DNA of 64,000 nt from Planctomycetota bacterium (GTDB taxonomy: Bacteria > Planctomycetota > B15-G4 > SIAN01), in the NCBI GenBank assembly GCA_036732755.1, contig DAINBU010000011.1:513-64512 (forward strand). Reading direction: 5' to 3'. How positions within the stretch are numbered: position 1 is the first letter of the stretch; the number at the start of each line of letters is the position of its first letter. The notes below the pieces were generated by a model. That model was not told the DNA's origin, made no database searches, and saw only the letters and a program-made list of their open reading frames with translations. Made by a program: the position numbers and the translations under genes. Below are positions 18,434 through 64,000 of this stretch, piece by piece.

Positions 18434-18465
18434 CCAAGCGCGGATCCGCAAGGGGGGCGGGGCGG

Positions 18466-31920: not shown

Positions 31921-32660
31921 ACGCCCGCTGCCGCGGCCGCGCCACGCGCGGGCACACTTTCGTCGAGATGATGATCGTGCTCTGCACGATGACCATCGTG
32001 CTCGGCGGCGTGATGCAGATCATGAAGGGCGCGCGCGATTCCTGGCAGCTCACCGGCTCGAAGTCGCGGCTGCAGGAGTCGGGCCGGCGCATGCTCGAGA
32101 AGATCGCCGCCGATCTGCGCAAGAGCGGGCTCACCAACGTCGCCGGCCAGAACTACCCGGCGATCTGGGAGCGGCAGCTCGGTCCCGAGAACACGCCGCG
32201 CGGCCCGCTCGTCGCGACCATGAACTACTCCGACGAATCGCTCGTGAACGAGGTCTTCGCCTGGAACGGCGTCGGCGACCACATCACGCGCAACGCCAAC
32301 CGCGTGGCCGACGAGATCGTCTTCCAGCTCCCGCAGGACCTCGACGGCAACGGCACGCCGCTCGACGCCAACGGCGACCTCGAGTGGGGCGCGCAGCTCT
32401 TCTCCTACCGCGTCGTGCAGGACGCGGAGGGCCGCCCCTGGCTCTACCGCAACACCGACGTCGGCGGCGTGCTCACCGAGCAGCGGCCGATCGGCTCGTC
32501 GGTCCGGTCGATCACCTTCGACGTCGTGTTCAACGACCGCTCGCTGCGGTTCGGGAACGTCGACATCGTGATCTATCTCGAGGAGACGAACGCCAACGGC
32601 CAGCGCGTGACCGCGGAGGTCGAAGGCTCGGTCAACCTGCGCAACACGAAGGAACTGTGA
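31902..32660 (+). CDS. Type IV pilus minor pilin, PilW-like (set 2)
   Basis: ATG at 31902 with GCAGGAG 8 nt upstream. It overlaps the upstream gene by 19 nt. Leader MRSHALNARCRGRATRG is followed by HTFVEMMIVLCTMTIVLGGVMQIMKGARDSWQLTGSKSRLQESGRRMLEKIAADLRKSGL, which fits the PilW N-terminal pattern. Confidence 0.7.
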   Translation: MRSHALNARCRGRATRGHTFVEMMIVLCTMTIVLGGVMQIMKGARDSWQLTGSKSRLQESGRRMLEKIAADLRKSGLTNVAGQNYPAIWERQLGPENTPRGPLVATMNYSDESLVNEVFAWNGVGDHITRNANRVADEIVFQLPQDLDGNGTPLDANGDLEWGAQLFSYRVVQDAEGRPWLYRNTDVGGVLTEQRPIGSSVRSITFDVVFNDRSLRFGNVDIVIYLEETNANGQRVTAEVEGSVNLRNTKEL

Positions 32661-47300: not shown

Positions 47301-47669
47301 CGCGAGCACCGCAGCTGCGACGCGCTGCTGGATCTCGGCGCGCGCGACGATCTCGCCGGCGGCGGGTGCGGTGGCGGGCGAGGCGCGAGCGGTCCCTTGG
47401 ATCTGCGCCTGCGCCTGCTCATGGCGTGCGCGTGTCGCTTCACCCCGAAAGAGGTGGCGCGCGACGTTGCGCGTCACGGCGCCGAGCCAGCTCCGCTTGT
47501 CGCCTCCATGGCGCGGCGGACGGGAGAGCGCGGCGAGCCACGTTTCCTGCTCGAGGTCGTCGACGCGATCGGCTCCGCGGACGAGTGCGCGCGCGACGCG
47601 ACGCACCCACGCGGCATGGCGCAGTAGCTCGTCCGCCGATTGCGGGAAGGACATGGGGGGCAGACTCAC
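44358..47669 (-). CDS. ECF-family sigma-70 factor fused to a transmembrane helix and a ~880-aa extracytoplasmic domain with carboxypeptidase-regulatory-like (prealbumin-fold) repeats
   Basis: GTG at 47669 with AAGGAGGAG 5 nt upstream. Sigma region 2 (RHAAWVRRVARALVRGADRVDDLEQETWLAAL) and region 4 (LPPTEIARTLDVSVETVKTRLKRGLAQLRERL) are present. There is no stop or plausible restart before a transmembrane helix (LIASAATIVIGVSLVVMM). Repeated beta-sandwich-like units follow (..GRIVDMKGEPI.., ..GVVLRSDGATPVANTRVHLEP.., ..GRLIVPDGATCAGLDVIAARP..). Confidence 0.7.
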   Translation of the reverse strand: MSLPPMSFPQSADELLRHAAWVRRVARALVRGADRVDDLEQETWLAALSRPPRHGGDKRSWLGAVTRNVARHLFRGEATRARHEQAQAQIQGTARASPATAPAAGEIVARAEIQQRVAAAVLALEEPYKSTLLARYFDELPPTEIARTLDVSVETVKTRLKRGLAQLRERLDSLKWNEPTLEAALMPLCGPIAHVVVPASAKLIASAATIVIGVSLVVMMNRRPAVSRTGAASVAAPAVLASPVALPAASAGPIAASGDPAPQESGAPARTKESAPVPNSPPDDAPAHMTGRLLLPDGSGAANVALRLYGWKSNQERALKYGLPTDWKPIEVVSQPDGSFAIEFTAPRAFQFVFDAKLDGYAAPAWRWTQIDPGSTKNLGDITLCRAGTIRGRIVDMKGEPILRAGWTVHADGPKCAEGDGADTTRVYTAVDATTARFLLENVPPGKVQLKANSRLTNWIQGPAIDVRSGETTDADIIYAGSDVAHRITVVLFARPFYIFESDAAEILLTGNGIEPRHATKIQFSSQSHSFDDVPDGQYTVEIRDPKFLPWRQDGVAVGSSISAKLKGNAQIRLHVVYAATGAEIPRYSLRVQFAGNTRPNTFELVKAGEPPPDGGLFDGMIPVEQTLIVEVPGCAACSLPLTPLPANQVTEVTARLTKGATISGVVLRSDGATPVANTRVHLEPNRESDSPNSGLHVVNGEAPAGIFDAESDADGQFEFACVPPGHYTICNEDAPPLEARIDDVDVREDTSRVADLELVLPPRGYLVGRLIVPDGATCAGLDVIAARPGETVEQKYDRIVRQHRMDFRRMRGSFDMPAPLSLAPDGTYRLGPLPPGPTEVHLALPPVRIPLGEGGSMSTGVSVEFALAARIVTKVGEPATTTSEPVTIVDGAETRADFDARAVFPGCLSVTVTVDGIPAAGAIVEVRPGKSTKMTKDQLLGVDRLAAGQVRADGRAILSPIPAGSVSVIVRGADQSWYWRAPQDFEIASGVESRAEFVIALVAGDLLIKDRATDLPMPSHFIDIGFGDGAADDFPYYVQSDASGRIHLRLQPGSYRMRDNDTNQSGEDAVPFEWTSQGPAADTIRIQKASASESESQDAGNK

Positions 47670-49452: not shown

Positions 49453-50874
49453 ATGCGTCGCCCGTCCCGCCGCGCCTTCCTCGTCGAATCGGGTTCGGCT
49501 GCCCTCGGCCTGGTGATCCTGCGCCGGCTGCCGGCGAGCGCGCGGCGCGGCGCGCCGTCCTCGCTCGAGAGAATCGAGGTCGCGCAGATCGGCTGCGGCC
49601 GCATGGGCCGCGGCGACGTGCTCGGCGTCCTCGCCTCCCCCCTCGCCCGGATCGTCGCCGTCTGCGACCTCGACAGCAAGCGCCTCGCGGCCGGGAAGCA
49701 GCTCGTCGAGGAGGCGTACCAGAAGCAGGGCGAATCGAAGATCGACGTCGCGACGTACGCCGACTACCGCGAGCTGCTCGCCCGCCCCGGCCTCGACGCC
49801 GTGATCGTGAGCGTCCCCGACCACTGGCACGCGCGCGTCGCCGTCGACGCGGCGCTCGCCGGCAAGCACGCCTACGTGCAGAAGCCCGTCACCTACGACG
49901 TCGCCGAGGCGCTCGCACTGCGCAAGGTCGTCCACGCGAAAGGGGTCGTCCTGCAGACCGGCTCGCAGCAGCGCAGCGACGAGCCGTGGTACGCCTTCCG
50001 GATCGCGAGCGAGCTCGCGCGCAACGGCGCGATCGGGAAGTTGAAGTCGATCCAGATCGGCCTCGGCAGCGATTCGCCGAGCGGCAAGCCGCCCGCGCCG
50101 ATGGCCGTCCCGGAGCACCTCGACTACGCGCGCTGGCTCGGCGCCGCCCCCGAGCAGCCCTACATGGAGGGCCGCGTCCATCCGCAGACGAGCCTGTCCG
50201 GCCGCCCCGGCTGGATCACGACCGAGGATTTCGGGCTCGGGATGATCACGAACTGGGGCGCGCACCACGTCGACATCGCGCAGTGGGCGCTCGGCCGGGA
50301 GCGCGGCGGGCCGCTCGCGATCGAGGGACGCGCGACCTTCATGCAGAACGACCTCTGGACCGTCCACCGCGACTACCACGTCGAGCTCGCCTACCCCGGC
50401 GACGTGCAGGTCGTGCTCGACCAGAAGTTCGAGGTCGGGCTGCGCTTCGAGGGCGACGGCGGCTGGCTCTTCTGCACGCGCAACGAGGAGCGCGCGACCG
50501 CGAGCGACCCGAAGGCGGCCGATCCCAAGAGCGCGCCGCTGCGCGCGAGCGACGCGCGGCTCCTCGCACCCGAAGCGCGTAATGGCCTCGGCGCGAAGGC
50601 GGTCCGCTGGCCCGCGAGCAAGAACCACTACTTCGACTGGCTCGAGGCGATCCGCGACCGCCGCGCACCGGTCGCCCCGATCGACGAGTCGGCGCGCAGC
50701 CTCACCGCCTGCTACCTCGCATGGCTCGCGATGAAGCTCGGGCGCAAGCTGAAATGGGACGCCGCCGCCGAGCGCATCGTGGACGACCCCGACGCCGGCG
50801 CTCGGCTCGGCCGCGCGCCGCGCTCGGGCGAGTACGACCTCGCCGCCGTGCTGAAGCGCGCCGGCATCGAGTGA
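49453..50874 (+). CDS. Gfo/Idh/MocA-family oxidoreductase with twin-arginine signal
   Basis: MRRPSRRAFLVESGSAALGL is a Tat motif (RRxFL). VAQIGCGRMGRG is a Rossmann NAD(P)-binding motif. EKP-like VQKP and the C-terminal alpha/beta domain are present. GAGGAG SD. Confidence 0.85.
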   Translation: MRRPSRRAFLVESGSAALGLVILRRLPASARRGAPSSLERIEVAQIGCGRMGRGDVLGVLASPLARIVAVCDLDSKRLAAGKQLVEEAYQKQGESKIDVATYADYRELLARPGLDAVIVSVPDHWHARVAVDAALAGKHAYVQKPVTYDVAEALALRKVVHAKGVVLQTGSQQRSDEPWYAFRIASELARNGAIGKLKSIQIGLGSDSPSGKPPAPMAVPEHLDYARWLGAAPEQPYMEGRVHPQTSLSGRPGWITTEDFGLGMITNWGAHHVDIAQWALGRERGGPLAIEGRATFMQNDLWTVHRDYHVELAYPGDVQVVLDQKFEVGLRFEGDGGWLFCTRNEERATASDPKAADPKSAPLRASDARLLAPEARNGLGAKAVRWPASKNHYFDWLEAIRDRRAPVAPIDESARSLTACYLAWLAMKLGRKLKWDAAAERIVDDPDAGARLGRAPRSGEYDLAAVLKRAGIE

Positions 50875-50879: not shown

Positions 50880-51761
50880 ATGACCCCGACGCCCCCGTTC
50901 GATTCCGCCGATCCCTCCGCGAAGATCACGCGCTTCCGCGCGCTGCACGCCGCCGGCTGCTTCCTTCTCCCGAATCCTTGGGACGTCGGCAGCGCGATCG
51001 CGCTCGCGCGCCGCGGTTTCAAGGCGCTCGCCACGACGTCCGCCGGCTACTCGTTCACGCGCGGACTGCCCGACGCGACCGACGCGCTCTCACGCGCGGA
51101 CGTCCTCGCCCACGTGCGCGAGATCGTCACGGCGACGCCGCTCCCCGTGAACGTCGACTTCCAGTCGGGGTACGCGCCCACGCCCGAAGGCGTCGCGGAG
51201 AGCGTCACGCTCTGCGCCGCGACCGGCTGCGCCGGCCTCTCGCTCGAGGACGCGAGCGGCGAAAGGCACGCGCCGCTCTTCGAGCTCCCGCACGCCGTCG
51301 AACGCATCCGCGCCGCGCGCGCCGCGCGCGACGCAGCCCGCTCGGGCGTCGTCCTCACCGCGCGCTGCGAGGCGTGGCTGGTCGGGGCGGACGATCCCAA
51401 GAAGATCGCCCTCGAGCGTCTCGTCGCCTTCGCCGAAGCGGGCGCCGACTGCCTCTACGCGCCGGGCGTGCGCGACCCCGCGACGATCGCGGAGCTCGTG
51501 CGCGCCGTCGCGCCCAAGCCGGTGAACGTCCTCGTCTCGGCGCCGGCGCCGGGGCTCTCGCTGAAAAGCCTCGCCGACCTCGGCGTGCGCCGCGTCTCGC
51601 TCGGCTCCACGCTCGCACGCGTCGCGTGGGGCGCCTTCCTCGCCGCGGCCGACGCGCTGGTGGCGGCCGATTCGTTCGACGTGCTCGCCGGAGCCGCTCC
51701 GTTCCAGGACCTGAACGCACTGTTCGCTGCGGGCCGCTACGGCAGCGGGGCGATGCTGTAG
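50880..51761 (+). CDS. Isocitrate lyase / PEP mutase superfamily enzyme (2-methylisocitrate lyase or carboxyvinyl-carboxyphosphonate phosphorylmutase-like)
   Basis: MTPTPPFDSADPSAKITRFRALHAAGCFLLPNPWDVGSAIALARRGFKALATTSAGYS matches the ICL/PEPM N-terminal pattern, and a later EDA-like motif (GLSLEDASG) is present. Upstream residues of track ORF 50721.. are Arg-rich shadow. Confidence 0.8.
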   Translation: MTPTPPFDSADPSAKITRFRALHAAGCFLLPNPWDVGSAIALARRGFKALATTSAGYSFTRGLPDATDALSRADVLAHVREIVTATPLPVNVDFQSGYAPTPEGVAESVTLCAATGCAGLSLEDASGERHAPLFELPHAVERIRAARAARDAARSGVVLTARCEAWLVGADDPKKIALERLVAFAEAGADCLYAPGVRDPATIAELVRAVAPKPVNVLVSAPAPGLSLKSLADLGVRRVSLGSTLARVAWGAFLAAADALVAADSFDVLAGAAPFQDLNALFAAGRYGSGAML

Positions 51762-52948
51762 ACGACGCCGTGTTTGTCGTAGGCGACGACGTAGATCTCG
51801 CCGTCGCGCCCCTGACCGAACGCGACGATGTTGAGCGGGGCCTTGTGGATCTGCTTCGGGACGGGCGGCTGACCGTTCGGGTCGAAGCAGAAGAGTCGCC
51901 CCTGCTCGAAGTCGCCGTAGACGTAGCGCCCCTGCAGCTCCGGCACGCTCGTGCCGTGGTAGACGAAACCGCCGACGATCGCCTCGCACTGCGGATGGTT
52001 GTGCACCGCGATCGGCGCGACGAAGCCGGGCGGGTTCGACGGGACGCCCGACGGATAGGCGAGGTTTCCCTCCAGGACGTTCCAGCCGTAGTTGCCGCCG
52101 CGCACGATCTCGTCGATCTCCTCGGCGTTGTCCTGGCCGACGTCGCCGGCCCACAGCCTCCCGGTCGCCGGATCGAACCCCATCTTCCATGGGTTGCGCA
52201 TGCCGAGGGCCCAGATCTCGTCGGCGCCGCCGACGCCGACGAAGGGGTTGTCGGACGGCACGGCGTAGGGGCGCACGGAGACGTCGAGACGGAGGATCTT
52301 CCCGAACCAGGTGTTCACGTCCTGGCCGTTGTCGAACGGGTCGCCCGCGTCGCCGCCGTCGCCGAACGCGACGTAGAGGAAGCCGTCGGGCCCGAAGTCG
52401 ATGTCGCCGCCGTTGTGGTTGCTGAAGAGCTGGAGCAGCGAGAGCACCGTCGCGTCCGGGCCGGGATCGAGCGTGAAGGTGAGTCCGCCGTCGGCGCTGA
52501 CGTAGCGCGTCACCTTCGACGTGCCGGCGTTGCCGCCGACGTTCTCGACGTAGGAGAGGAAGACCAGGCCGTTCGTCCCGAAGGCGGGATCGAAGGCCAT
52601 CCCGAGCACGCCGTTCTCCCCGTTGGTCAGCAGGTTCGGGACGGTGACCGCGGTCGAGCGCGTCCCGGCCGGATCGGTGTCGAGAAAGGTCTCGATCGCG
52701 CCGAACTGCTCGACGACGTACCAGCGGTGGTCGTCGCTCGGGTGCTGCAGCAGGTCGACGGCGTAGGGGAAGGCCTGGCCGCCGAAAGCGGGCGTGAGGG
52801 CGACGACCGGCGGAGCGTGTGGGTGCGAGCCGCGCGAGCAGGCGCCCGCGCCGAGTACCCCCAGCGCCGCCAGCGCGGCGAGCCGCGCCGCTCTCAGGGT
52901 CGAGCGCAGGCTTGCGCGCGGGGTCGCGCCTCCTCGAGCGTGAGCCAT
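51737..52948 (-). CDS. PQQ-dependent sugar dehydrogenase (soluble glucose/sorbosone dehydrogenase family) lipoprotein
   Basis: ATG at 52948 with GGAGAG 7 nt upstream. Lipoprotein-type signal with Cys (..LAALAALGVLGAGACSRG). sGDH-family beta-propeller motifs follow (HNGGDIDFGPDGFLYVAFGDGGDAGDPFDNGQD, GMRNPWKMGFDPATGRLWAGDVGQD, EIDEIVRGGNYGW). It overlaps the convergent PEPM gene by 25 nt. Confidence 0.8.
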   Translation of the reverse strand: MAHARGGATPRASLRSTLRAARLAALAALGVLGAGACSRGSHPHAPPVVALTPAFGGQAFPYAVDLLQHPSDDHRWYVVEQFGAIETFLDTDPAGTRSTAVTVPNLLTNGENGVLGMAFDPAFGTNGLVFLSYVENVGGNAGTSKVTRYVSADGGLTFTLDPGPDATVLSLLQLFSNHNGGDIDFGPDGFLYVAFGDGGDAGDPFDNGQDVNTWFGKILRLDVSVRPYAVPSDNPFVGVGGADEIWALGMRNPWKMGFDPATGRLWAGDVGQDNAEEIDEIVRGGNYGWNVLEGNLAYPSGVPSNPPGFVAPIAVHNHPQCEAIVGGFVYHGTSVPELQGRYVYGDFEQGRLFCFDPNGQPPVPKQIHKAPLNIVAFGQGRDGEIYVVAYDKHGVVYSIAPLP

Positions 52949-53000: not shown

Positions 53001-54188
53001 TCAGCCCGACGTGCGCTCCACGGGGGCGCCGTCCGAGGCCGCAGTTCCGTTCACCGGCGCCCCCCCGGCGGCGGGCGCGACGATCAGCACGGTGAAGGTG
53101 CGCCCGATCGGGTCGCGGCCCCCCTGCGTCAGCTCGATGCGCACGCGGTCGGCCCCCTCGTCGTGCGGCAGCATGGCCGTGAAGGCGATGCGCGAACGCG
53201 GCGCGCGTTCGCTGCTCAGCACCGGGTCGGGCTGCGCCTCGGAGAGCGTCCCGTCGACGACGCGCTCGCCGCAGCGCACCACGCAGCCGCGCAGGTCGGC
53301 GGCGGAATCGCTGCGCACCTCGACGTGGCCGCTGACCACCACCTCGCCGCGGCGCGCGACCGCCTTCACGTCGCGCAGCAGGTAGAAGTCGGCGAGGTCC
53401 TCGGTCGCGAGGATCGTCCCCGACGACTCGTCGACGCGGCGCGCGAGCCCGGCCGCGAGCCCGCTCCCGACCGCCGCCGCGAAGTGCTCCTCGACGTGGC
53501 GGTTGTTGCGTTCGAGCAGGCCGGGCGGGACGACCAGCGAGAAGACGTAGCCGAGCGGCTCCGCGCGATCGAGGAAGTCGAGGCGCACCTCGTCGAGGCG
53601 CACCTCGAAGCGCGCCACCTCCGCGTCGCCGTCGGCGAACGTGGCGCGGCCGCCGGCGATCGGCAGCACCTGGTGCAGCACCGCCTGGAGGCGCGCCTCG
53701 CCGCGGTAGGTCGTGTCGTCGACGAACCAGCAGAAGGGCCCGCCGATCAGGAAGAGGGGCAGGTTGAGCCAGAACGTCTCGTTGTGCTCGTAGGAGGCGC
53801 GGCGCGGCACCTTGGCGTCGCACTCGAGGACGAGGTCGGCGTCGGCGTCGGCGCACGCCCGCCGCCACCACGCGTCCTGCTCGGAGCGCGGCAGGCGCTG
53901 GAACTCCTCGGGCGACGTGCCGGCCGGCCAAGGCAGCACGATCGCGTCGGCGAAGCGGCCGCGCAGCGCGTCGCGCACCGCGCCGGTGAGCTGCGTCGAA
54001 TCGAAGCGCGGCACGATCGAATTGCCCTCGGGCGCGCTTCCCTCCGACGCGAGGTCGGGGAGCGCCGCGGCGTCGAACGGGATCACCGCGACCTTGAAGG
54101 GCAGCGTGCCGCCCGAGACGCTGGTCGTCGCGGTGCAGCCGACCGGCGCGAGCAGTCCGGCGCAGAGGAGCAGCGCGCGCAGCTTCAC
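53001..54188 (-). CDS. Hypothetical lipoprotein, last gene of the FHA / kinase operon
   Basis: GTG at 54188 overlaps the kinase stop (GTGA). GAGGGGG lies about 9 nt upstream. VKLRALLLCAGLLAPVGCTATTS gives a signal with Cys. The mature protein has ordinary composition. Only the C-terminal 396 aa of track ORF 53001..55904 are real. Confidence 0.6.
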   Translation of the reverse strand: MKLRALLLCAGLLAPVGCTATTSVSGGTLPFKVAVIPFDAAALPDLASEGSAPEGNSIVPRFDSTQLTGAVRDALRGRFADAIVLPWPAGTSPEEFQRLPRSEQDAWWRRACADADADLVLECDAKVPRRASYEHNETFWLNLPLFLIGGPFCWFVDDTTYRGEARLQAVLHQVLPIAGGRATFADGDAEVARFEVRLDEVRLDFLDRAEPLGYVFSLVVPPGLLERNNRHVEEHFAAAVGSGLAAGLARRVDESSGTILATEDLADFYLLRDVKAVARRGEVVVSGHVEVRSDSAADLRGCVVRCGERVVDGTLSEAQPDPVLSSERAPRSRIAFTAMLPHDEGADRVRIELTQGGRDPIGRTFTVLIVAPAAGGAPVNGTAASDGAPVERTSG

Positions 54189-57100
54189 TTGCCGCCCCCC
54201 TCGCCGCTGCACTCGCTGAAGCGCGCCCGCTGCAGGTCGCCGCTCTCGAGCTGCCCGAGCACGTCGTCGAACGACGCCGCGCAGCGGAAGCCGCGGTCGG
54301 GCGCGCGCGCGTCGCGCCGCTGCCGGTCGGCGCAGGCGAAGTCGCCGTGCGCGCGCCGCGACGACGCCCCCACCACCCAGAACTCCGCCGCCTCGGCGGG
54401 CGACGCGCGCTCGCGCGGCCGGAGGAACCACGCGCGGTGGTCGTTCACCCAGCGGATCGGGTTGGCGCCGTCGAAGCCGTCGGCGACGGTGCCGCTCCAC
54501 TCGCTCACGCCGCCGGTCAGGTCGCGCAGCCTGGTGTCGGGGGTGACGTCGGCGCCGCCCGCCTCGACGCCGCGTCCCGACGCCGTCGCCCGATAGTTCG
54601 CGCCGCCGCGCAGCGCGTACTCCCACTCGACGAACGACGGCAGCCGCTTGCCGGCCCAGCTCGCGAAGGCCGCCGCCTCGTTCCAGGTGACGTCGGTGAC
54701 CGGCCGGCCTGGCGGGGCGTCGCGCAGCGTCGCCTGCAGCGCGGCGCGGCGCTGCGCGGCGGGCGCCGCTCCGGCCGGCCAGTGCGTCGCGTCGGCCCAG
54801 CCGCGCGGGTCTTCGAGGAAAGCGCGGAAGTCGGCGACCGTCGTCTCGCGCTCGTCGAGGTAGTAGTCGCCGATCTCGCCGGCGGGGAACTCGGCGGACC
54901 ACGAGCGGGAGATCTTCAGGCGATTGTAGGAGCCGAGCCCGACCGACGCGAAGAGGCGCTTCTCGTCCTCGTCGTTGCGGCCGCCGAAGCGGTAGGGCAC
55001 GTCGCGGTTGCCGCGGACGAGACGCAGCGTCGCGAGGGTCGCGTTGCCCTGCGTCACGCGGACCGCCGCCGGCGCCATGCGCGTGATCGTGTCGGCCTCG
55101 CGCTTGGTCGAGACGGTGGTCGACCGGCCGCGCCGGTCGCGCGCCGTGAACGTGATCGTCACCTCGCGCTGCGTCCACGACCGCGGGATGCGCGTGCGGC
55201 CCGACCACTCGCGCGCCGCCGCCTCCTGGTCGCGCCCCTCCGCCGCGAGCGCGACCTCGACCGGCGCGAGGCCGGCGACCTCGAGGCGCGCCGCCACGTC
55301 GGCGACGCCGTTTTGATCCTCGACGTCGGCGCGCAGTTCGTAGTTGCCCGCCGCGTCGGGGTCCCAGGCGTGGTCGGCGAGCGGCCGCTTGAGCTCGACG
55401 ACCGGGCCGCGCTGCGCGATCTCGAAGGGGAGCTCGACCGGCGCGGCGACGTTCCCCGCTTCGTCGGAGCCGACCAGGCGCAGGACGTAGCGCCCGTCGG
55501 GCCAGGCGGGCGGATCGGCGAGCGCGGCGGCGACGGGGAGCGGCAGCGCGAGCTCGCACGGCTCGCCCCCGACGGCGGCGGCGGGCAGCTCCCCTTCGGC
55601 GAGCGGCGCCGTCGCGCCCGCCCCGTTCGCGCGAACGGAGCGCACCACCTCGAAGCGCACGTGCGCCGGCGCGGCCATCCCGGTGCGCTCGGAGACGCCG
55701 GTGTCGACGGTCAGGAGCGCCGCCGCCGGCCAGGCGCCCGCGCTGCGCGACCGCTCCTCCGCCGCGAGCGCCCTGCATTCGAGCCGCGGCGGCGTCTCGT
55801 CGACGACGCAGCGCGCGCGCAGCTCGAGGTCGGGCGGCCGGCGGCGGTCGTCGGCGTCGATCTGGCGCCAGCAGCGCAGCAGGAGCTCGTGCGGGCCCGC
55901 GCACGGGAGCTCGACCTTGAACGTCCCCAGCACGTCGGAGGGGCCGCCGAGCGCGACCTCCTCGGCGTCCCCCGCGCCCGCATCGGCGCGCGGCGGCGTG
56001 ACGGCGCGGCCGTCGACGGCGAGCGTCACGCGCAGCGGCACGCTCCCCATGCGCGTCACGTGGACCTCGATCCGGCGCGACGCCGTGAACCAGGGCGCCC
56101 GCTCGTCATCGGGCGTGTCCGTCGCGAGCGGCACCGCGGGTGAAGCGCCGTCGGGGCCGGACAGCGCGACCGCCAGCTGCGGGCGCGCGTCGCTGCAGTC
56201 GAATTCGAGCCGCGCATGGGCGCGGCCGCGCCGCTCCGCGTCGTCGCGCAGCACGTAGGCGGCGTCGGAGGCGCGGACCTCGAGGGCCCCCTTGAACAGG
56301 CGGTCGCCCGGATCGAAGCCGAAGTCGGCGAGCGCGACGTCGACGCTCTTCGTGCACGCGAGCGCGCGCCGACCGAGCGAACGCCCGCCTGCCTCGAGCA
56401 ACTCGACCTCGACGTCGGCGACCGTCGAGAGCGCGAAGGAGAGGCGCGAGCGGCGGCGGTCGGCCACGAACCAGCGCTCGCCGTTGCGCAGCGCGGCCGA
56501 GAGCTCCGGCTCCCGCGCGAAGGCGAGCGGGTCGGTCACGATCTCGAGCGGGCAGGTCGCCAGCTCCTCGTTCCCGGCTCTGTCGACCAGGTGGATCTGC
56601 AGCGGCGGGCTCGCGCTCGTGAGCTCGAGCCCGCGCAGCGCAAGGCGCCAGACGCCGCGCGACTCGTCGCGGCGCGACTCGTCCTGCTGCGCCTGGAGCG
56701 GGCTGCCGCCGGCGCGCACCTCGATCTTCTCGACGTCCTCGGGCCGGCCGTCGACCACCACCTCGATCAGCTGCGCCTTCGGGTCGAGCCGGCGGCCGTC
56801 GCGGCGCGGCACGTCGACGCTCCCGAGGCGGATCGCGTCGGGGCCGAGCCATTCGAGCGCGAACGGCTGCGAGTAGCGCGCCGGCGCGTCGCGCGGCGCG
56901 AGCGAGAGGCGGCGCACCTCGACGTAGACGGCCTCGCGCACGCGGCCGCCCTGGCGCTCCGACGCGACGCTGCCGGCCACGCGCAGCGAGCCCGCGCCGA
57001 GCGACGTCGCCATCCAGTCGGCGAGCGTGCCCGCCTCGGGCTTGGGGTCGGCGACGAGGCGGACCACGTCGCCCTCGGCGAGGTCGACGCCGCTCGCGCG

Positions 57101-58339
57101 CAGCACGACCTCGGGGCGCTGCGGGCCGAGCGTCAGCACGTCGTCGGTCAGCAGCCGCTCGTGGTCGGACTCGCGCGCGAAGAGGTCGAAGTAGGGCGCC
57201 GCGTCGCGCGGGAGCATGAGCCAGCCGCTCGTCGCCGCCAGCGCGACCACGATCGACGCGAAGGCGAGCGCGCGCCGGCCGGTGCGCGGGTGGACGATCG
57301 CGTCGAGCGCGGCGTACGCCTCCTCGGCGTTCCGGAAGCGCCGCTCGCGGTCGCGCGCGAGGCAGCGGTCGATGAAGCGCGCGAGGCGGCGCGGCAGCCC
57401 CTTCGCCAGCGCCTCGACGGACGGCGGATCGCGCGCGAGCTTCTCGGTCAGGAGCGCGCGCGCGTCGCCGCGGTTCTCGAAGGGGAGGCGTCCGGTGACC
57501 ATCCGGAAGCCGATCGCGCCGACCGCGTAGAGGTCGGCGCGCTCGTCGAGCGCGACGACTTCCTCGCCGGTGAGGAGGTGGGCCCCCTGCTCGGGGGCGC
57601 AGTACTCGGGCGTGCAGGCGGCGCAGCGGACCGTGTCGGATCCCGCGGAGTCGCCGAGCTTCGCGCCGGAGGCGGAGCGGCGGCGGATGGTCTGTCCGGG
57701 GTCGTCGGGGAGCTCGTCGAAGTACTCCGCCGGCTCGACGATGTACGCGACGTCGGCGCCGAGGAACTGGCTCACGCCGAAGTCGATCACCTTGACCCAG
57801 TCGCTCCCGGCGCGGCCGCCCGGCTGCGGCTCGAGGAAGACGTTCGAGGGCTTGAGGTCGAGGTGGAGCAGGCACTCGCCGTCGGGCAGGCGGTGCGCGG
57901 CGCGCAGCGCGTCGACGATCTGCAGCAGGATGCGCGCGGCGCGGGCGGGCGCGAGCTTCTTCTCGCTCTCGAGCAGGTCGAGCAGGTCGCGCCCCTCGAG
58001 CAGCTCCATCACGAAGTAGGGCGTGCCGTCGGCCGTCTGCGCCAGCGCCTTCCAGTCGACGACGTTGGGGTGCTTGAGGCGCGTGAGGCGGCGCACCTCC
58101 TCGAGGAAGCCGGCGAGGCTCGCTTCGTCGGCGGCGACGTCGCGGTGGAGGATCTTGATCGCGACGCCGCAACCGAGCGAGAGGTCGCGCGCCGAGTAGA
58201 CCGCCCCGAAGCCGCCGACGCCGACCAGGCGAAGGATCAGGAACTTGCCGTCGAAGGTGCAGCCGACCAGCTCGCCTTCGCGGCCGCGCTCCGGCGCGCC
58301 GGCGTACGGCGCCTCGACGTCGCGATCGGGGGCGTCCAT
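54185..58339 (-). CDS. Transmembrane Ser/Thr protein kinase (non-RD, HLD catalytic loop) with a large extracytoplasmic region ending in an FGE-sulfatase (formylglycine-generating enzyme-like) domain
   Basis: ATG at 58339 overlaps the upstream gene stop (TGATG). Kinase subdomains: [40 protein letters not shown]. A transmembrane helix follows ([19 protein letters not shown]). A ~700-aa extracytoplasmic region ends in the FGE motif block ([33 protein letters not shown] ... HGDFAC..RGFRCA). The N-terminal 1400 aa of track ORF 54185..62539 are out-of-frame shadow of the giant gene. Confidence 0.85.
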   Translation of the reverse strand: [1384 protein letters not shown]

Positions 58340-61300
58340 CAATGGGCCCCGAAGAAGATCGGGACGTTGTCGAGGTCGGGCTGGGCGCTGACCAGGTCGG
58401 AGTCGCCGTCCCCGTCGACGTCGACCACGCGCAGCGACTGCGGCGAGCTCGTGAAGGCGGTCGCCCCCACCACCTCGACCGTCGTGAAGACGCCCGGATT
58501 CGACTGGAAGAACAGGACGAAGGCGTCGCTGCTCGAGCCGCCCGCGACGACGTCGGGCGAGCCGTCGCGGTCGACGTCCTCGAGGGAGAGGCAGGTGGGC
58601 GCCAGCAGCGAGGCGTGGGTGAGCGTGAGCGAGGGGGTGGTCGGGAAGACGCCCTGCGCGCTCGCGAGGAAGAGCGTCACGCTGTTCGAGTTCAGGTTGG
58701 CGCAGGCGAGGTCGACGTCGCCGTCGCCGTCGAGGTCGGCGGCCGCGACCACGACCGGCCCGTTGGTCGTGCCGTTCGAGCCGAGCGTCGCGTCGGGGAG
58801 CGCGTTGAACGTGCCGCCCGGCTGCTGGAAGAAGACCGTGACGTTGTTGCCGGCGGAGTTGGCGCAGGCGAGGTCGGACGCGCCGTCGCCGTCCAGGTCG
58901 GCCGCGAGCACGAAGACCGGCGACTTGGTGGTCGCGTTGCTCCCGAGCGTGGCGTCGGGCGCGGCGGGGTAGGCGCCGGCATTGCGATGGAACAGCTGGA
59001 CGCGGTTCGCCGACGCGTCGGCCACGGCGAGGTCGAGGTCGCCGTCGCCGTCGAGGTCGGCGCAGGCGAGGTGGAACGGGTCGCCGAGCGCGCCCGCGCC
59101 GAGCGTGAAGCTCGCCGCGGCCGCGAAGGTGCCGTCTCCTTGGTGCGCGAAGCCGGTCACCGTCTTGCCGGTGCGGTTCGCCGCGACGAGGTCGACGCGG
59201 CCGTCGCCGTTCCAGTCGGCCGCGACCACCGCGTTGGTCCCGGCGGTCGACGCGCCGCCGCCGAGGCGCTGACCCACCTGCGACCCGAAGACCGCCGGCG
59301 CGAGCTGCGGGAACAGCGAGATCGTCCCGTCGCCCGTGTTCGCGGTCGCGAGGTCGAGGTCGCCGTCGCCGTCGAGGTCGGCCACCGCGACGCCGTGCAC
59401 GTCGGGCGTGTCGATCGCGCTGCCGAGGACGAGGTCGGGCGACTGGCCGGTGAAGCTGCGGCCGCCGAGCTGGAAGAAGAGCGTCAGGTCGTTGCCGCCC
59501 TGGTTGGCCGAGGCGAGGTCGATCTGCCCGTCGGCGTCGAGGTCGTCGAGCACGACGTGGACCGGGCCGACGATCCCGCCGGCGCCGTGCACGACCAGCG
59601 GCTCGCTGTTGAAGGTGCCGGCGGCGGGGTCGCGCAGGAACGTGGCGAGCGAATCGTTGGCGCTCGGGGCGACGATGTCGATGCCGCCGTCGCCGTTCAC
59701 GTCGCCGACCGCGACGTGGCGCGGCGCGATCGGGCCGGCCGACGAGGCGAGCGTGAAGGTCGGGAAGACCCCCACGCCGCCCGCCGTCGCCTGCAGGAAG
59801 ACCGTCACGCAGTTGCCGGCCTGGTTGGCGTTGACGACGTCGAGGCGGCCGTCGCGGTCGACGTCGAAGAGGCGCACCGCCGCGGGCCCGTCGGTGAGGC
59901 CCGCCCCGCCGATCAATTGCGACGGCGCCGTCGGGAAGCTGCCGCCGCCCGCCTGCAGCCAGATGGCGATCTGGTTCTTGCCGCGCAGCGACGCGACCAG
60001 GTCGACGTCGCCGTCGCCGTCGAAGTCGCCGGCGTCGAGGCCGCTCGGCGCGAGCGTGTTGACGCTGCTCAGCAGCAGCGTCGGGTTGGTCGGGAAACTG
60101 CCCAGCATGCTCTGCACGTAGATCGCGACGTTGTTGCTGCCGTCGCAGGAGCAGGCCAGGTCGATGCGGCGGTCGCCGTTGAGGTCGGCGGCGACCACGC
60201 AGGTCGGCCCGGTGATGCCGCCGAGGCTGAACCCCTGCACGGTGAACGACCCGGGCGAGTTCTGCTTGGCGATCGTGAGGTTGTTGCTGGCGTGGCTGGC
60301 GGTCGCGAGGTCGGTGTCGCCGTCCTTGTCGAGGTCGGCGGCGACCACGGAGACGGGCTGCGTCATCCTCGCCAGCAGCGGGATGCCGATGAGCGTGACG
60401 CTGGGCGCGGTCGGGAACTTGTGGCTCTTGTCCTGGAAGAAGATCGTCACCGAGTCGGCGCCCTGGTTGGCGGAGACGACGTCGAGGTCGCCGTCGCCGT
60501 CGAGGTCGGCCGCCTCGAGCGAGGCGACGCTGGTCGTCGAGGCGACGCCGCCGATGTGGACCGGGAGGACGTCGAGTCCTGCGCGCACCGGACGCGGGAC
60601 GCCGGTGTCGGTGGCGAGCCCGGGCTCGGTGTCGTAGGCGGTGCCGCGCAGCACGACCGAGCCGCCGGCCGGGAGGTCGGAGGAGTCCCACACGAAGGTG
60701 TCGCCGCGCACGCTCGCGCCGGCCGGCCGCGGCGAGGAGTCGTCGCGGATGCGCCACGCCTGGCGCGCGTCGAGCGGCGGCACGAAGGGCGCCGCGACCG
60801 TCACGCGCCGCGTCGCCACGTCGACCGCCGAGATCGTCCGCACCTGCTGCACGCCGCCGCCGACCGCGACGTCGTTCGCCGCCGGGAGCGCGAGGAGGCG
60901 CTGGTCGTCGGAGCCGGTCGCGAGGCCGGCCACGTCGAGCGGCAGGCCGGCGACCACCTGGAAGGCGGGACCGCCGCCGCCCGTCCCGAGGTCGACGCAG
61001 CGCAGCTCCCGCGTCGAGTCGGCCGTGTTGGCGTCGACGACCGCGAGCAGCCGCGCGCCGCCGCGCTCGAGCGCGATCGCCTCGGGCCGCGCGAGCTTGA
61101 GCCCGGTGCTCACGAGGTCGCTGCGCGTCAGCGTGCCGAGGTCGACGATCGAGACGCGCCCCTCGACGGTCGACGTCGCCGGATCGACCCAGGTCGCCTC
61201 GGCGAGGTAGAGCTGCGAGGGGTGGCGCGGGTCGACGGCGATGCCCCACGGGCCGGCCAGTCCGTTCAGCACGGTGCGTCCCGTGGCGCCGCCGGGAAAC

Positions 61301-62898
61301 GCGCGGTCGACCGCGATCAGCGCGTCGCCGACCGTGAGCAGGAGCGTGTCTTTTCCGGTCGCGACCAGGCCGCGCACCGTGCCGGTCGCGAAGGCGCCCG
61401 TGCCGGCGAAGAACGGCGTGCGCGCGCCGTCGGCGAGCGCGATCTCGAAGACGGTCCAGGCGCCCGCGACGTCCGCCGCGACCAGCACCGACCGCTCCTC
61501 GCTCCCGTAGGCGAGCGCGCTCGGGTCGCCGTCGGCGCCGCTGGCGAGGTCGCGCACGACGACGCCGGTCGCGAGGTCGATTTCGCGCAGCCGCCACTGG
61601 CCGGACGACGGCCGGTCGAGCACGAGGCCGTCGTGGCCGTCCCCCACCGACAGCGCCGCGACCGGTCCGGCGAGCGGATCGCTGGCCCAGCCGGCGGCGC
61701 GGCCGGCCGGCGGCGACGGCACCGCGAGCAGCTCGAGCGAGCGGCCCGCGACGTACTCGGAGAGCAGCCCCGCCGCCGACGAGCCGAGCTCGTGGAGCTG
61801 CGCCGTCACGCCGTCGATCGGGAGCAGCCAGCCGTAGTGCAGGAGCGGCGCCTCGGTCGCGATGCGGTGCTGGTGGCGCAGGTCGGGGTCGGCGAGGATC
61901 GCGTCGAGCGCGGCCGGCGACGCCGGCAGAGCCGGGAAGGAGCTGGCGTCGGGCCCCCACTGGAAGACGACGCGCACCGCGTCGCCCTCCGCGTCGATCA
62001 GCTGGTAGCGCACCGGGATCGCGCGCCGCGAGTCGGGGTCGGCGAAGAAGCCGCTGCCGTCGACGAGCAGCGTGGGCGGCGCGTTGTTGTCGAGCTGGAG
62101 GTCGGGAGTCTCGACCACGACGCCGGCGTCGAACGCGTCGGACGGCGTGAAGCGCAGCCGCGCCCGGAACTCGCGCTGCGGTGCGTCGGCTTCCACGTCC
62201 CACAGGAAGAGGGCGTGCATGCCGGAGGGCGAGGTCGCCACCTGCTGCAGGTCGGAGCCCAGCGGGGTCGCCGGCTTCCAGTTCGACGGGTCGGCCTGGT
62301 CGGCGTACTCGACGACGACGTCGGCGAGGTCGGCCGAGGAGTCGGCGAGCGAGAGGTCGATCGCGACCGGCCCCTCGACCTCGTCCGACGGCGAGGACAG
62401 GACGGCCACGGTCGGCGGGTCGTTGCCGACGTCGAAGGGGCCGGTGGTCGGCCCGCTCGCGTCGCCGGCGCGGCGGACCATGATCCGGAGCCCGCTCGAG
62501 AGCGCCGTCCCCGACGGGAGCTGCGCCGCGAAGTCCCACTGGCGTTGGTGGTCGACGCCGGCCGGCGACGTCGCGAGCGCCGTCAGGTCGGTGTTCCCGA
62601 CGAGGAGCGCCGGCTCGGTCGCGCCGCCCGGATGGACCACCAGGATCTCGACGCTGAGCGGGCGCGCGGCGCCGTCGGTCAGGCGGAACGAGAGCGTCGC
62701 GGGCGACTGCTTGCGGTCGAGCGCGCTGCCGGCGTCGACGTCGCTGATGACGATCGCGCCGGGGCGCGCCGCGCTCGAGCCGCCGCTCTTCAGGAGCTTC
62801 GCGATCGCCGCGGTGCCGGCGCCGCAGGACGCGAGGACGAGCGACGCCGCGGCGGCGAGGCCGATCCCGGCTCTCTGGCGCGGCGTGCGTCGCGACAC
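58339..62898 (-). CDS. Giant (~1520 aa) secreted lipoprotein with a beta-propeller-like N-region and about 12 FG-GAP/VCBS-type repeats
   Basis: Start is proposed as GTG at 62898, giving MSRRTPRQRAGIGLAAAASLVLASCGAG with an L-A-S-C lipobox. Track TTG at 62979 adds a poly-Arg leader and is less likely. Repeats include DLDGDGDLDVVSAN, DLDKDGDTDLATAS, DFDGDGDVDLVAS, DVDRDGRLDVVNAN, DVNGDGGIDIVAPS, DLDADGQIDLASAN, DLDGDGDLDLATAN, DWNGDGRVDLVAAN and DVDGDGDSDLVSAQ. The stop overlaps the kinase ATG. Confidence 0.8.
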   Translation of the reverse strand: MSRRTPRQRAGIGLAAAASLVLASCGAGTAAIAKLLKSGGSSAARPGAIVISDVDAGSALDRKQSPATLSFRLTDGAARPLSVEILVVHPGGATEPALLVGNTDLTALATSPAGVDHQRQWDFAAQLPSGTALSSGLRIMVRRAGDASGPTTGPFDVGNDPPTVAVLSSPSDEVEGPVAIDLSLADSSADLADVVVEYADQADPSNWKPATPLGSDLQQVATSPSGMHALFLWDVEADAPQREFRARLRFTPSDAFDAGVVVETPDLQLDNNAPPTLLVDGSGFFADPDSRRAIPVRYQLIDAEGDAVRVVFQWGPDASSFPALPASPAALDAILADPDLRHQHRIATEAPLLHYGWLLPIDGVTAQLHELGSSAAGLLSEYVAGRSLELLAVPSPPAGRAAGWASDPLAGPVAALSVGDGHDGLVLDRPSSGQWRLREIDLATGVVVRDLASGADGDPSALAYGSEERSVLVAADVAGAWTVFEIALADGARTPFFAGTGAFATGTVRGLVATGKDTLLLTVGDALIAVDRAFPGGATGRTVLNGLAGPWGIAVDPRHPSQLYLAEATWVDPATSTVEGRVSIVDLGTLTRSDLVSTGLKLARPEAIALERGGARLLAVVDANTADSTRELRCVDLGTGGGGPAFQVVAGLPLDVAGLATGSDDQRLLALPAANDVAVGGGVQQVRTISAVDVATRRVTVAAPFVPPLDARQAWRIRDDSSPRPAGASVRGDTFVWDSSDLPAGGSVVLRGTAYDTEPGLATDTGVPRPVRAGLDVLPVHIGGVASTTSVASLEAADLDGDGDLDVVSANQGADSVTIFFQDKSHKFPTAPSVTLIGIPLLARMTQPVSVVAADLDKDGDTDLATASHASNNLTIAKQNSPGSFTVQGFSLGGITGPTCVVAADLNGDRRIDLACSCDGSNNVAIYVQSMLGSFPTNPTLLLSSVNTLAPSGLDAGDFDGDGDVDLVASLRGKNQIAIWLQAGGGSFPTAPSQLIGGAGLTDGPAAVRLFDVDRDGRLDVVNANQAGNCVTVFLQATAGGVGVFPTFTLASSAGPIAPRHVAVGDVNGDGGIDIVAPSANDSLATFLRDPAAGTFNSEPLVVHGAGGIVGPVHVVLDDLDADGQIDLASANQGGNDLTLFFQLGGRSFTGQSPDLVLGSAIDTPDVHGVAVADLDGDGDLDLATANTGDGTISLFPQLAPAVFGSQVGQRLGGGASTAGTNAVVAADWNGDGRVDLVAANRTGKTVTGFAHQGDGTFAAAASFTLGAGALGDPFHLACADLDGDGDLDLAVADASANRVQLFHRNAGAYPAAPDATLGSNATTKSPVFVLAADLDGDGASDLACANSAGNNVTVFFQQPGGTFNALPDATLGSNGTTNGPVVVAAADLDGDGDVDLACANLNSNSVTLFLASAQGVFPTTPSLTLTHASLLAPTCLSLEDVDRDGSPDVVAGGSSSDAFVLFFQSNPGVFTTVEVVGATAFTSSPQSLRVVDVDGDGDSDLVSAQPDLDNVPIFFGAH

Positions 62899-62908
62899 GA
62901 TGGGGATC

Positions 62909-63298
62909 TCAGCGCGTCGTGGGGAGCGCCGGCGGCGGCGTCGAGAGGGTCTGCTCCTCGCGCTGCTGCGCGCGCGCAAGGTCGTCGGCGCCCGTCGCGC
63001 CGAGGATGCCGACGTGGAGCGAGTAGTCGCCGATCTGGACGATGTCGCCGTTGCGCAGCTCGGCGTTCCGCACGGGCCGGCCGTTCAGCGACGTCCCGTT
63101 CGAGCTGCCGAGGTCCTCGAGGAAGTGGCGCCCCGACTTGGCGACGATCGCCGCGTGCATGCGCGACACGTCGGCGCTGTCGATGCGCAGGTCGCAGTCG
63201 GCGGAGCGCCCGATCAGGACGCGGTCCTTGACCGACTCGAGCCGGTGCGTCACGCGACCGTTCAGGATCGTCGTGAGGCTGATCTGCGTGGACGCCAT
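62909..63298 (-). CDS. FHA-domain protein (129 aa), first gene of the operon
   Basis: ATG at 63298 with GGGGGAG 7 nt upstream. RVLIGRSADCDLRIDSADVSRMHAAIVAKSGRHFLEDLGSSNGTSLNGRPV..GDIVQIG is the canonical FHA pattern (G-R...S.xH, SxNGT). Stop lies 10 nt before the GTG of the giant lipoprotein gene. Confidence 0.8.
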   Translation of the reverse strand: MASTQISLTTILNGRVTHRLESVKDRVLIGRSADCDLRIDSADVSRMHAAIVAKSGRHFLEDLGSSNGTSLNGRPVRNAELRNGDIVQIGDYSLHVGILGATGADDLARAQQREEQTLSTPPPALPTTR

Positions 63299-63436
63299 CG
63301 CGCCGCTCCCCCCCTCTTCCGTGGCGAGTCCCCTCCGTCGTTTTTTCGGTAGGGCTGCCCGGGGGGCTTGAGCCGATGACGGAAGGCGGAAGGCCCCGTG
63401 TTGCCCGGCGACCGCGGCCCGATCGGGAGAAACCCC

Positions 63437-64000
63437 ATGGCCAAGCCCAAGCCGCGCCGGGCGCGCAAGCCGTCGCCCCGTGCGCGCAAGCCCTCGCCCC
63501 GCGCGGAGCTCCTGCTCGCGCTCGAGGCGCAGAGCCGCATGACCGCCGACCTCGCGCGCCTCAAGGAGGAGGCCGAGGCCGCGAGCCGCGCCAAGAGCGC
63601 GTTCCTCGCCAACATGAGCCACGAGATCCGGACGCCGCTCAACGCGATCCTGGGGATGGCCGAGCTGCTCGACGCGTCGCAGCTCAACTCGAGCCAGCGG
63701 CGCCACGTCGCCGTGCTGCGCAACGCGGGCGACGCGCTGATCCGCCTGATCGGCGACATCCTCGACCTCGCGAAGGTCGAGGCGGCGAAGCTCGAGCTCG
63801 AGCGCGCCCCCTTCGACGTGCGCACGCTCTTCGAGGGCGCCGCCGACGTGGTCGCGGTCGGCGCCAGCCGCAAGGGGCTCTACGTCACGCTCGACGTCGA
63901 GCCGTCGGTGCCGCGCGCGCTGGTCGGCGACGCCCACCGGCTGCGCCAGGTGCTGCTCAACCTGCTCGGAAATGCGGTCAAGTTCACGGAGCGCGGCGGC
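63437..64000 (+). CDS. Histidine kinase (HisKA plus the start of HATPase_c), 5' part; continues beyond the right edge
   Basis: ATG at 63437 with GGGAGA 6 nt upstream. A coiled-coil precedes FLANMSHEIRTPLNAILGMAELL (H-box). The N-box region follows (LRQVLLNLLGNAVKFTERGG). No stop occurs before position 64000. The ORF is absent from the track because it lacks a stop. Confidence 0.8.
   Translation, partial: MAKPKPRRARKPSPRARKPSPRAELLLALEAQSRMTADLARLKEEAEAASRAKSAFLANMSHEIRTPLNAILGMAELLDASQLNSSQRRHVAVLRNAGDALIRLIGDILDLAKVEAAKLELERAPFDVRTLFEGAADVVAVGASRKGLYVTLDVEPSVPRALVGDAHRLRQVLLNLLGNAVKFTERGG

Follow-up and report, generated by a model that had tools for sequence, protein, structure and literature searches.

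Positions 53,001 to 63,298 of the analysed DNA, a stretch of 64,000 nucleotides (hereafter the window), hold a real, tightly packed operon of four genes from a soil planctomycete. The genes encode a small FHA-domain protein, a giant FG-GAP lipoprotein, a membrane-spanning Hanks-type Ser/Thr kinase and a small lipoprotein of a previously unnamed family. Co-inheritance was observed in related genomes. For what lies beyond it, we infer, with the balance tipped slightly in favour, that the region encodes a conserved envelope-signalling module of Planctomycetota centred on a receptor kinase. Most probably the operon encodes an envelope sensor as yet uncharacterised and does not embody a new principle.

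All four genes lie on the minus strand: the FHA gene at 62,909–63,298 (ATG at 63,298; 129 aa), the giant gene at 58,339–62,898 (GTG at 62,898; 1519 aa), the kinase gene at 54,185–58,339 (ATG at 58,339; 1384 aa) and the small-lipoprotein gene at 53,001–54,188 (GTG at 54,188; 395 aa). In the proposed frames, the third-position GC is 0.94–1.00 and the second-position GC is the lowest, the pattern expected of minus-strand genes. Genes called independently on 13 metagenome contigs with the identical kinase have the same boundaries. The FHA stop codon is separated from the GTG of the giant gene by a 10-nt spacer (TGA GATCCCCATC GTG), the giant and kinase genes have one base in common (TGATG), and the kinase and lipoprotein genes overlap by 4 nt (GTGA). 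The gene placement and the three junctions given in a preliminary description of this DNA were thus exact. Its conclusion that the junctions imply fixed stoichiometry, however, was overstated, since the window holds at least four further 4-nt gene overlaps and such joining of stop and start codons is ordinary here. Of the junctions of the operon, the kinase/lipoprotein overlap is the only one conserved in evolution.

The preliminary description had also allowed for an error in which the giant gene starts at TTG 62,979 and overlaps the FHA gene. This start is unlikely because the third-position GC from 62,979 to 62,898 still tracks the FHA frame, because 27 Arg-rich residues would precede a normal signal peptide, and because the orthologues begin at the equivalent of 62,898.

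Upstream of the FHA gene, a divergent intergenic region of 99 nt (63,299–63,397) presumably contains the operon promoter. A plus-strand hybrid histidine-kinase ORF with a HisKA match begins at 63,398, on the other side of this region, and the third-position GC changes frame and strand within it. A consensus scan of the region, uninformative at 72% GC, gave no sigma-70-like site. At the other end of the operon, a fifth gene on the same strand (51,737–52,948) starts 52 nt downstream of the lipoprotein gene and is probably co-transcribed with the operon. It encodes a beta-propeller protein resembling GSDH/PQQ-type sugar dehydrogenases (GSDH, 154.8 bits), found beside the cassette only in the clade of the window and in locus L007. 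The protein is secreted or lipoprotein-like, and the earlier account did not include it.

The comparison took in about 45 related loci; those assigned to a genome all come from Planctomycetota, in uncultured metagenome-assembled genomes (MAGs). The synteny comparison spans protein identities of 28–50%. The kinase gene is followed by the small-lipoprotein gene in all loci with upstream sequence, L024 being the sole exception; these two genes are the core of the cassette. Of 31 distinct loci, 21 offer an NTGA start/stop overlap at the junction of this pair, mostly as ATGA, though A is rare at the third position in these genomes. The giant gene adjoins the cassette in most loci, either upstream (giant-kinase-lipoprotein in L007, L009, L010, L011, L013, L014, L015, L029, L031 and L035) or downstream (kinase-lipoprotein-giant in L018, L021, L022, L039 and L046). 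In L012 it is separated from the cassette by three genes. Since no giant gene was found in the available flanks of L019, L023 and L025, it is not obligatory. The permuted order together with the kept neighbourhood points to a functional linkage of the cassette genes, in agreement with the earlier proposal that they form a functional unit. It might be argued that four unrelated genes have come to lie side by side in a gene-dense, GC-rich genome in which FG-GAP proteins are abundant (two more are encoded in the window) and short overlaps are common. The synteny contradicts this reading, to which we give next to no credence: the core pair stays adjacent, its ATGA junction is conserved, and the adjacency of the giant gene survives permutation at identities down to about 28%.

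The kinase is a bitopic protein of the inner membrane. Its Pkinase match scores 119 bits against a cut-off of 31.7, the kinase domain lies at about aa 30–350 (57,290–58,252), and all Hanks-kinase motifs were found: the Gly-rich loop VGVGGFGAV, the Lys of VAIK, HLDLKPSN at aa 159–166, DFG at aa 186 and APE at aa 247. The catalytic loop of the window kinase, like that of all 28 family sequences examined, reads HLD, not the HRD of the RD class, which bears out the non-RD assignment made earlier. The long activation segment described earlier (about 60 aa) is indeed present, with 58 residues between DFG and APE, but it is not a conserved feature; across the family, the insert adds anywhere between 0 and about 65 residues to a normal loop, and L012/P0026 lacks it. 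A hydropathy scan located a single transmembrane helix at about aa 357–377 (57,209–57,271). Since basic residues precede this helix, the N-terminus is predicted to be cytoplasmic. The outer region of roughly 1000 aa consists of a beta-rich stalk (about aa 378–1120; 54,980–57,208), in which a Big_13 Ig-like match of 22 bits, below its cut-off, recurs in homologues, and a C-terminal FGE-sulfatase-fold domain (about aa 1121–1365; 54,245–54,979). The same architecture is found in 26 full-length homologues.

StkP, PknB and PknA are the solved kinases nearest in sequence to the kinase domain. The likeness to PknB and StkP extends to the bitopic arrangement with an extracytoplasmic sensor region and to an FHA partner encoded nearby. 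PknB and StkP are, however, RD kinases that are activated by loop phosphorylation and bind peptidoglycan fragments through PASTA domains, whereas the planctomycete kinase is non-RD and has an Ig-like stalk and an FGE-like head. Fusions of Pkinase and FGE-sulfatase have been noted for the "Proteo1" family in an atlas of bacterial Ser/Thr kinases, with these two Pfam domains likewise arranged in that order and a membrane span between them. The planctomycete kinases are much longer than many of these (1300–1700 aa versus about 960 aa) and differ in the long Ig-like stalk, the invariant non-RD HLD loop and the dedicated lipoprotein partner. None of these features was described in the literature found on such fusions.

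The outer domain matches FGE-sulfatase (PF03781) with 63.5 bits against a cut-off of 23.3, and the matches in homologues are full-length. The signature of the fold is kept (WNEA...AGKRLP..EWEY and GFRCA), and the GFRCAA and RxxC motifs are present in the alignment to human FGE. This likeness to SUMF1/FGE, at the level of the fold, does not extend to the catalytic residues. A functional FGE has a Cys pair, C336 and C341 in the human enzyme, 5 and 10 residues before a conserved structural Cys. In the window kinase, His and Ser stand at the offsets -5 and -10 relative to the aligned Cys, and the 50 residues before that Cys contain no other; the 26 aligned homologues have no conserved Cys column in the catalytic segment. 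Since the copper- and substrate-binding pair is lacking, the domain is not an FGE, and the name given to homologues by NCBI and JGI, bifunctional kinase/formylglycine-generating enzyme, is misleading for this family. The earlier suggestion that the domain may bind a ligand rather than act as an enzyme was supported as regards FGE activity, as both catalytic cysteines are missing in 26 of 26 family members compared.

The domain could nevertheless be considered an active enzyme whose targets are the lipoproteins of the operon or other substrates in the periplasm, on the basis of the above-threshold Pfam match, the database names and a weak resemblance to EgtB and SenA, in which this fold carries out other chemistry. 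The missing cysteines largely refute FGE chemistry itself. EgtB-type chemistry requires a separate DinB-like iron domain, which was not detected in a Pfam search of the kinase protein, and the main ORFs of the window include no sulfatase gene. An active enzyme is thus very improbable.

Both lipoproteins of the operon are predicted from a signal peptide and a lipobox Cys, and all orthologues have a hydrophobic leader and a Cys. In the giant protein, the lipobox LVLAS-C25 is followed by about 780 aa without a known domain. The remainder (about aa 785–1519; 58,342–60,546) matches FG-GAP_3 in 12 stretches with a total of 269 bits, and between aa 798 and 1519 the DxDxDG motif recurs 14 times, about every 53 aa. 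Tandem repeats with DxDxDG loops place the protein among the FG-GAP, integrin-alpha-like proteins, and 14 putative Ca-binding repeats would fit two seven-bladed propellers. A sequence search gave no PDB relative of the giant protein. Its orthologues in distant cassettes are full-length, with identities of 47–48% and 30%. As a surface adhesin, the role put forward for it earlier, it is a candidate at most. For the small lipoprotein, no Pfam family was found. Its lipobox Cys18 is invariant in 94 sequences, and it carries an LPF(K/H)VAV motif. The structural model (pLDDT 91) shows an alpha/beta domain like those of TolB-N, PelC, LpoB and FlgT, followed by a C-terminal Ig-like sandwich; the best structural matches are an FlgT-like H-ring protein, the PelC dodecamer, CsgG and LpoB.

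These matches are ring-forming or machine-docking envelope proteins, and between lineages the giant protein is more conserved than the kinase (47–48% versus 36%). Both observations would suit a structural role, in which the FGE-like head, the FlgT/PelC-like lipoprotein and the giant protein build a scaffold or ring, periplasmic or outer-membrane, with the kinase only regulating its assembly and no external sensing. There is precedent in PorK and GldK, FGE-fold lipoproteins that build the scaffold of the type IX secretion and gliding apparatus. We regard such a role as unlikely.

The FHA protein consists of a stand-alone domain (Pfam FHA, 79.4 bits, E = 2.8e-22) with the pThr-binding residues GR, SxxH and NG intact (IGRS, SRMH and SSNGT). 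Small FHA genes recur near cassettes in three independent arrangements. Locus L035 has three FHA genes, one of which, as in the window, lies upstream of the giant gene; L032 has one, convergent with the cassette. No FHA gene was found within about 10 kb of the cassettes L009–L013, L015, L018, L021 and L022. The FHA protein is an accessory part of the cassette, missing from many. The signalling pair of FHA protein and kinase described earlier is borne out in so far as small FHA genes recur beside distant cassettes, but it does not hold for the cassettes that lack them.

In the sensor reading, which we prefer, the FGE-like head would serve as a binding domain and would touch the small lipoprotein, the giant propeller protein or both, in the periplasm or at the outer membrane. 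Binding of a ligand by the propellers, or a change in the state of the envelope, might then alter the oligomerisation and activity of the kinase. Since the catalytic loop is non-RD, activation need not involve phosphorylation of the activation loop. The small FHA protein, product of the first gene of the operon, would either bind the resulting phospho-threonines or itself carry them, and may relay the signal to a cytoplasmic target.

A similar chain is known from the threonine phosphorylation pathway of the Pseudomonas aeruginosa H1-T6SS, TagQRST-PpkA-Fha1-PppA, which senses envelope insult through TagQRST-PpkA. TagQ is a lipoprotein, the periplasmic COG1262 protein TagR acts upstream of the membrane Hanks kinase PpkA, and Fha1 is an FHA protein that serves as reader or substrate. 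We take COG1262 to be the FGE COG and TagR, on that label, to be FGE-like; literature searches gave no confirmation of this. The two systems resemble each other in the kinds of their parts (membrane Hanks kinase, putative FGE-type component, lipoprotein and FHA protein) and in their apparent logic, in which an envelope event acts on a kinase and the kinase on an FHA protein. In the planctomycete cassette, however, kinase and FGE-like part form a single protein, the latter at the C-terminus behind a stalk of roughly 750 aa, the periplasmic domain differs from that of PpkA, and the giant FG-GAP lipoprotein and the new lipoprotein family have no shown relation to TagQ; the phylum here is Planctomycetota. 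The main ORFs of the window and the flanks of related loci yielded no PP2C/PppA-type phosphatase, no TagS/T ABC-like component and no T6SS gene, and no other obvious signalling output turned up in the window. On the best reading, the cassette would resemble the pathway in logic without being a member.

In locus L020, the same outer region and lipoprotein are joined to a non-kinase cytoplasmic head with a sub-threshold match to TIR_2 (E = 1.7e-5; 25.7 bits, the cut-off being 28) and an FxsC TIR-like match (E = 7.5e-4). Such a domain swap would be expected of an outer part that serves as an input module, and it counts in favour of the sensor reading. It is conceivable, though rather unlikely, that membrane span, Ig-like stalk, dead FGE-like head and FlgT/PelC-like lipoprotein form a hitherto unrecognised planctomycete envelope-sensing module for interchangeable effectors (non-RD Hanks kinases with FHA readers in most loci, the TIR-like head in L020), with FG-GAP or NHL propeller giants capturing ligands or surveying. 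If true, the module would be a bacterial counterpart of the non-RD pattern-recognition receptor kinases, reporting contact with or damage to the envelope.

The same swap could also indicate a sensor of envelope breach or phage attack, in which the outer region and lipoproteins detect damage to or contact with the envelope and fire interchangeable effectors in the manner of TagQRST-PpkA or of kinase-based defence. The presence of three paralogous cassettes in one MAG, together with the known envelope-stress sensing by TagQRST-PpkA, would be in line with this. The TIR assignment is, however, below threshold, and no PDB relative was found for the L020 head. Moreover, PADLOC gave only generic kinase-domain matches (PD-T4-6 and mad6) and none for the FHA, giant, small-lipoprotein or L020 proteins, and the window shows neither a mobile-element nor a defence-island context. 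We consider a breach sensor distinctly improbable.

The finding overturns nothing. It delineates a cassette that is compact and conserved, and a new family of lipoproteins whose fold was modelled with confidence. Given the parallel with TagR-PpkA-Fha1, the pairing of an FGE fold with a Hanks kinase may well be a recurrent route of envelope sensing. Planctomycetota have many Hanks kinases and huge FG-GAP/VCBS proteins, the roles of which are almost wholly obscure. The cassette names candidate partners among them and provides a defined, testable partner set for one class of receptor kinase.

The GC content of the window is 72%, and long open reading frames are therefore present in all frames. 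The coding frames of the operon were settled by codon-position GC. Across positions 53001-63298, the third-position GC was 0.94-1.00 in exactly the frames proposed in the preliminary description, and the second-position GC was the lowest, as expected of minus-strand genes. The four minus-strand genes are an FHA gene (63298-62909; 129 aa, ATG start), a giant lipoprotein gene (62898-58339; 1519 aa, GTG start, lipobox LVLAS-C25), a kinase gene (58339-54185; 1384 aa, ATG start) and a small lipoprotein gene (54188-53001; 395 aa, GTG start). They are joined by a 10-nt gap, a 1-nt overlap (TGATG) and a 4-nt overlap (GTGA), in this order. The same boundaries were called in 13 metagenome contigs encoding an identical kinase, and the coordinates and junctions originally proposed were thus reproduced. 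A start of the giant gene at TTG 62979, which would overlap the FHA gene, is unlikely in view of the third-position GC frame, the shape of the signal peptide and the N-termini of the orthologues. Long plus-strand frames across these genes (e.g. 58342-63231, 1629 aa) were rejected as antisense artefacts of the 72% GC, since both codon-position GC and Pfam favour the minus strand. A scan for promoters and terminators gave no match, and such a scan is uninformative at this GC content. A fifth gene on the same strand, GSDH-like (52948-51737), begins 52 nt downstream of the small lipoprotein gene; its 3' end overlaps that of a convergent plus-strand PEP_mutase-family gene by 25 nt (51737-51761).

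The overlapping junctions had been taken to imply a fixed stoichiometry of the products. This does not follow, because at least four other same-strand pairs in the window show 4-nt start/stop overlaps (24407-24410, 27800-27803, 32657-32660 and 50871-50874). Such junctions are therefore routine in this genome.

The Pfam matches (FHA, FG-GAP_3/FG-GAP, and Pkinase together with FGE-sulfatase) agreed with the domains assigned at the outset; NCBIfam added domain-level matches only, and the small lipoprotein had no Pfam match. The FHA protein retains the GR, SxxH and NG residues. In the C-terminal half of the giant protein, 14 FG-GAP repeats with a DxDxDG motif recur about every 53 aa, a number compatible with two seven-bladed propellers. 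The N-terminal region of this protein, of about 780 aa, showed no characterised domain in Pfam and no sequence relative in the PDB. Two further FG-GAP proteins are encoded in the window, at 577-2361 (minus strand) and 11373-13295 (plus strand), the second with an UnbV_ASPIC domain, and the genome is rich in such proteins.

The cytoplasmic part of the kinase, which among solved kinases is closest to StkP, PknB and PknA, has all catalytic motifs. Its catalytic loop reads HLD instead of HRD, and the HLDLKPxN loop is invariant across the family, in line with the non-RD assignment made earlier. The long activation segment is indeed present in the window kinase. Across the family, however, DFG and APE are separated by anything from about 20 to about 90 residues, and this segment is not conserved; it is a variable insert rather than a defined feature. 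In the more distant kinases P0008, P0010, P0017, P0026 and P0016 (loci L009, L010, L011, L012 and L013, respectively), an extra cytoplasmic N-terminal region of 185-265 aa precedes the kinase domain. This extension has no Pfam match and no counterpart in the window clade, and it contains some conserved helical motifs (e.g. ...RVERAL....). A fused FHA domain was rejected as its identity, since Pfam gave no support and the sequences are not FHA-like.

A single transmembrane helix (about aa 357-377) leads to the outer part of the kinase, which has a sub-threshold Pfam match to the Ig-like Big_13 domain in its middle and the FGE-sulfatase domain at its C-terminus. When the latter is aligned with human FGE, both sequences share the GFRCAA and structural-Cys motifs, and His and Ser are found at -5 and -10, the sites of human C341 and C336. 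No Cys was found in the 50 residues preceding the structural Cys in this alignment, nor was any Cys conserved in this segment in a family alignment of 26 sequences. Since both catalytic Cys residues are absent, the domain, as read from its sequence, is not an FGE enzyme, as had been suspected. The rival reading, that the domain is an active enzyme, is highly improbable with His and Ser at these sites.

Full-length homologues of the kinase (28-90% identity, 1300-1700 aa, same domains) were found only in metagenomes and metagenome-assembled genomes (MAGs). All 12 genome-assigned loci, found in a scan with a 5-sequence alignment, belong to Planctomycetota MAGs, the nearest being from soil with a lipoprotein identity of 92%. 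In a synteny comparison of about 45 loci, the small lipoprotein gene directly follows the sequence for the kinase outer region wherever upstream sequence is available. The sole exception is L024, which has a truncated lipoprotein gene with an oxidoreductase gene upstream. A start codon overlapping the TGA of the kinase is available in 21 of the 31 distinct loci, and the overlaps are mostly ATGA despite the rarity of A at third positions in these genomes. The junction appears to be under selection, as would be consistent with translational coupling of the pair.

Conservation of the four-gene order, in contrast, was found only in part. Orthologues of the giant protein align along their whole length (47-48% and about 30% identity). 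The giant gene precedes the kinase gene in at least 10 lineages, follows the lipoprotein gene in five and lies at a distance of three genes in L012; in a few loci it is missing from the flanks available. A permuted order within a retained neighbourhood is good evidence for a functional linkage of the giant gene to the cassette. The FHA gene is not universal. FHA genes adjoin the cassettes of the window clade (L001-L007, L014). A distant cassette, L035, has three small Pfam-confirmed ones, one 5' of the giant gene (70-429), the position seen in the window, and two in tandem 3' of the lipoprotein (10840-11235 and 11306-11686), and L032 has one in convergent orientation. Many cassettes have no FHA gene within 10 kb, and FHA is therefore a recurrent accessory. 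That the genes of the cassette adjoin one another by mere chance is scarcely credible beside this synteny. One Planctomycetota MAG (OFTM205, JAJDCM01) carries three paralogous kinase-lipoprotein cassettes (L013, L019 and L025), and a giant FG-GAP gene adjoins one of the three.

For the small lipoprotein, a profile search against 1.84 billion representatives gave a family of 249 clusters, nearly all of 350-420 aa. Its Cys18 is invariant in 94 sequences. The AlphaFold2 model from this 94-sequence alignment reached a pLDDT of 91 and a pTM of 0.87; that from 12 close sequences was poor (pLDDT 57).

In the window clade, two genes are oriented divergently to the operon, one for a hybrid histidine kinase (HisKA, receiver, Hpt; plus strand, 63398-64000 and beyond) and one for a receiver-EAL protein. 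These two genes and the GSDH gene are confined to the window lineage. The L010 cassette is flanked by genes for an HDOD-receiver-GGDEF protein and an Hpt protein (16372-18745). This hints, in two lineages only, at a link to c-di-GMP signalling. Elsewhere in the window, a minus-strand gene at 44358-47669 (1103 aa) encodes an N-terminus of ECF sigma-70 type (regions 2 and 4) followed by a large part containing CarboxypepD_reg-like domains. Such a sigma-factor fusion is unusual, and it is conserved in the sister contigs. Another minus-strand frame of 1103 aa (37748-41059) has no Pfam match and an Arg/Ala/Gly-rich translation, and is probably a spurious antisense frame over a plus-strand gene; the two share no sequence similarity and were rejected as paralogues.

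The nearest known logic is that of TagQ/TagR-PpkA-Fha1 of the Pseudomonas aeruginosa H1-T6SS, in which TagR is listed as COG1262. We take COG1262 to be the FGE COG; no description of TagR as an FGE-like protein was found in our literature searches. The operon does not belong to that system, as genes for a phosphatase, for TagS/T and for the T6SS were not found in the window. The fusion of a kinase with an FGE domain already has a name in databases and was noted in a kinome survey. Literature searches gave no description of the cassette, its lipoprotein family or the loss of the catalytic Cys residues.

We lean, somewhat, towards a receptor-kinase module that spans the envelope. Binding partners of the dead FGE-like head would be the small lipoprotein, the giant propeller protein or both, a change at this contact would alter the kinase activity, and the FHA protein, where present, would read the phospho-threonine. 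Of this reading, the joint inheritance of the genes, the conserved junction, the lost catalytic residues and the topology were seen in the data, while the contacts, the signal and its output are inferred. A structural scaffold would be a less likely role for the same proteins. A sensor of damage or phage seems more doubtful still, PADLOC having returned generic kinase matches only for the cassette proteins.

It is worth noting that one locus, L020, encodes a paralogue (4640-8116, plus strand) with the same Ig-like stalk and FGE-like domain and without the kinase domain, followed by the same partner lipoprotein gene (about 8100-9188). Two genes for NHL-repeat (propeller) proteins lie upstream, and NHL genes are adjacent in L012 too. 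The cytoplasmic head of the paralogue, of about 200 aa, shows sub-threshold similarity to TIR domains (Pfam TIR_2, E 1.7e-5 and under the cut-off; FxsC TIR-like, E 7.5e-4) and had no TIR relative in a PDB sequence search; the TIR assignment is thus weak. A homologue search with the outer region of the kinase alone returned four close relatives and no alternative heads. The architecture of the L020 paralogue suggests that the outer part of the kinase may be an input module with exchangeable outputs.
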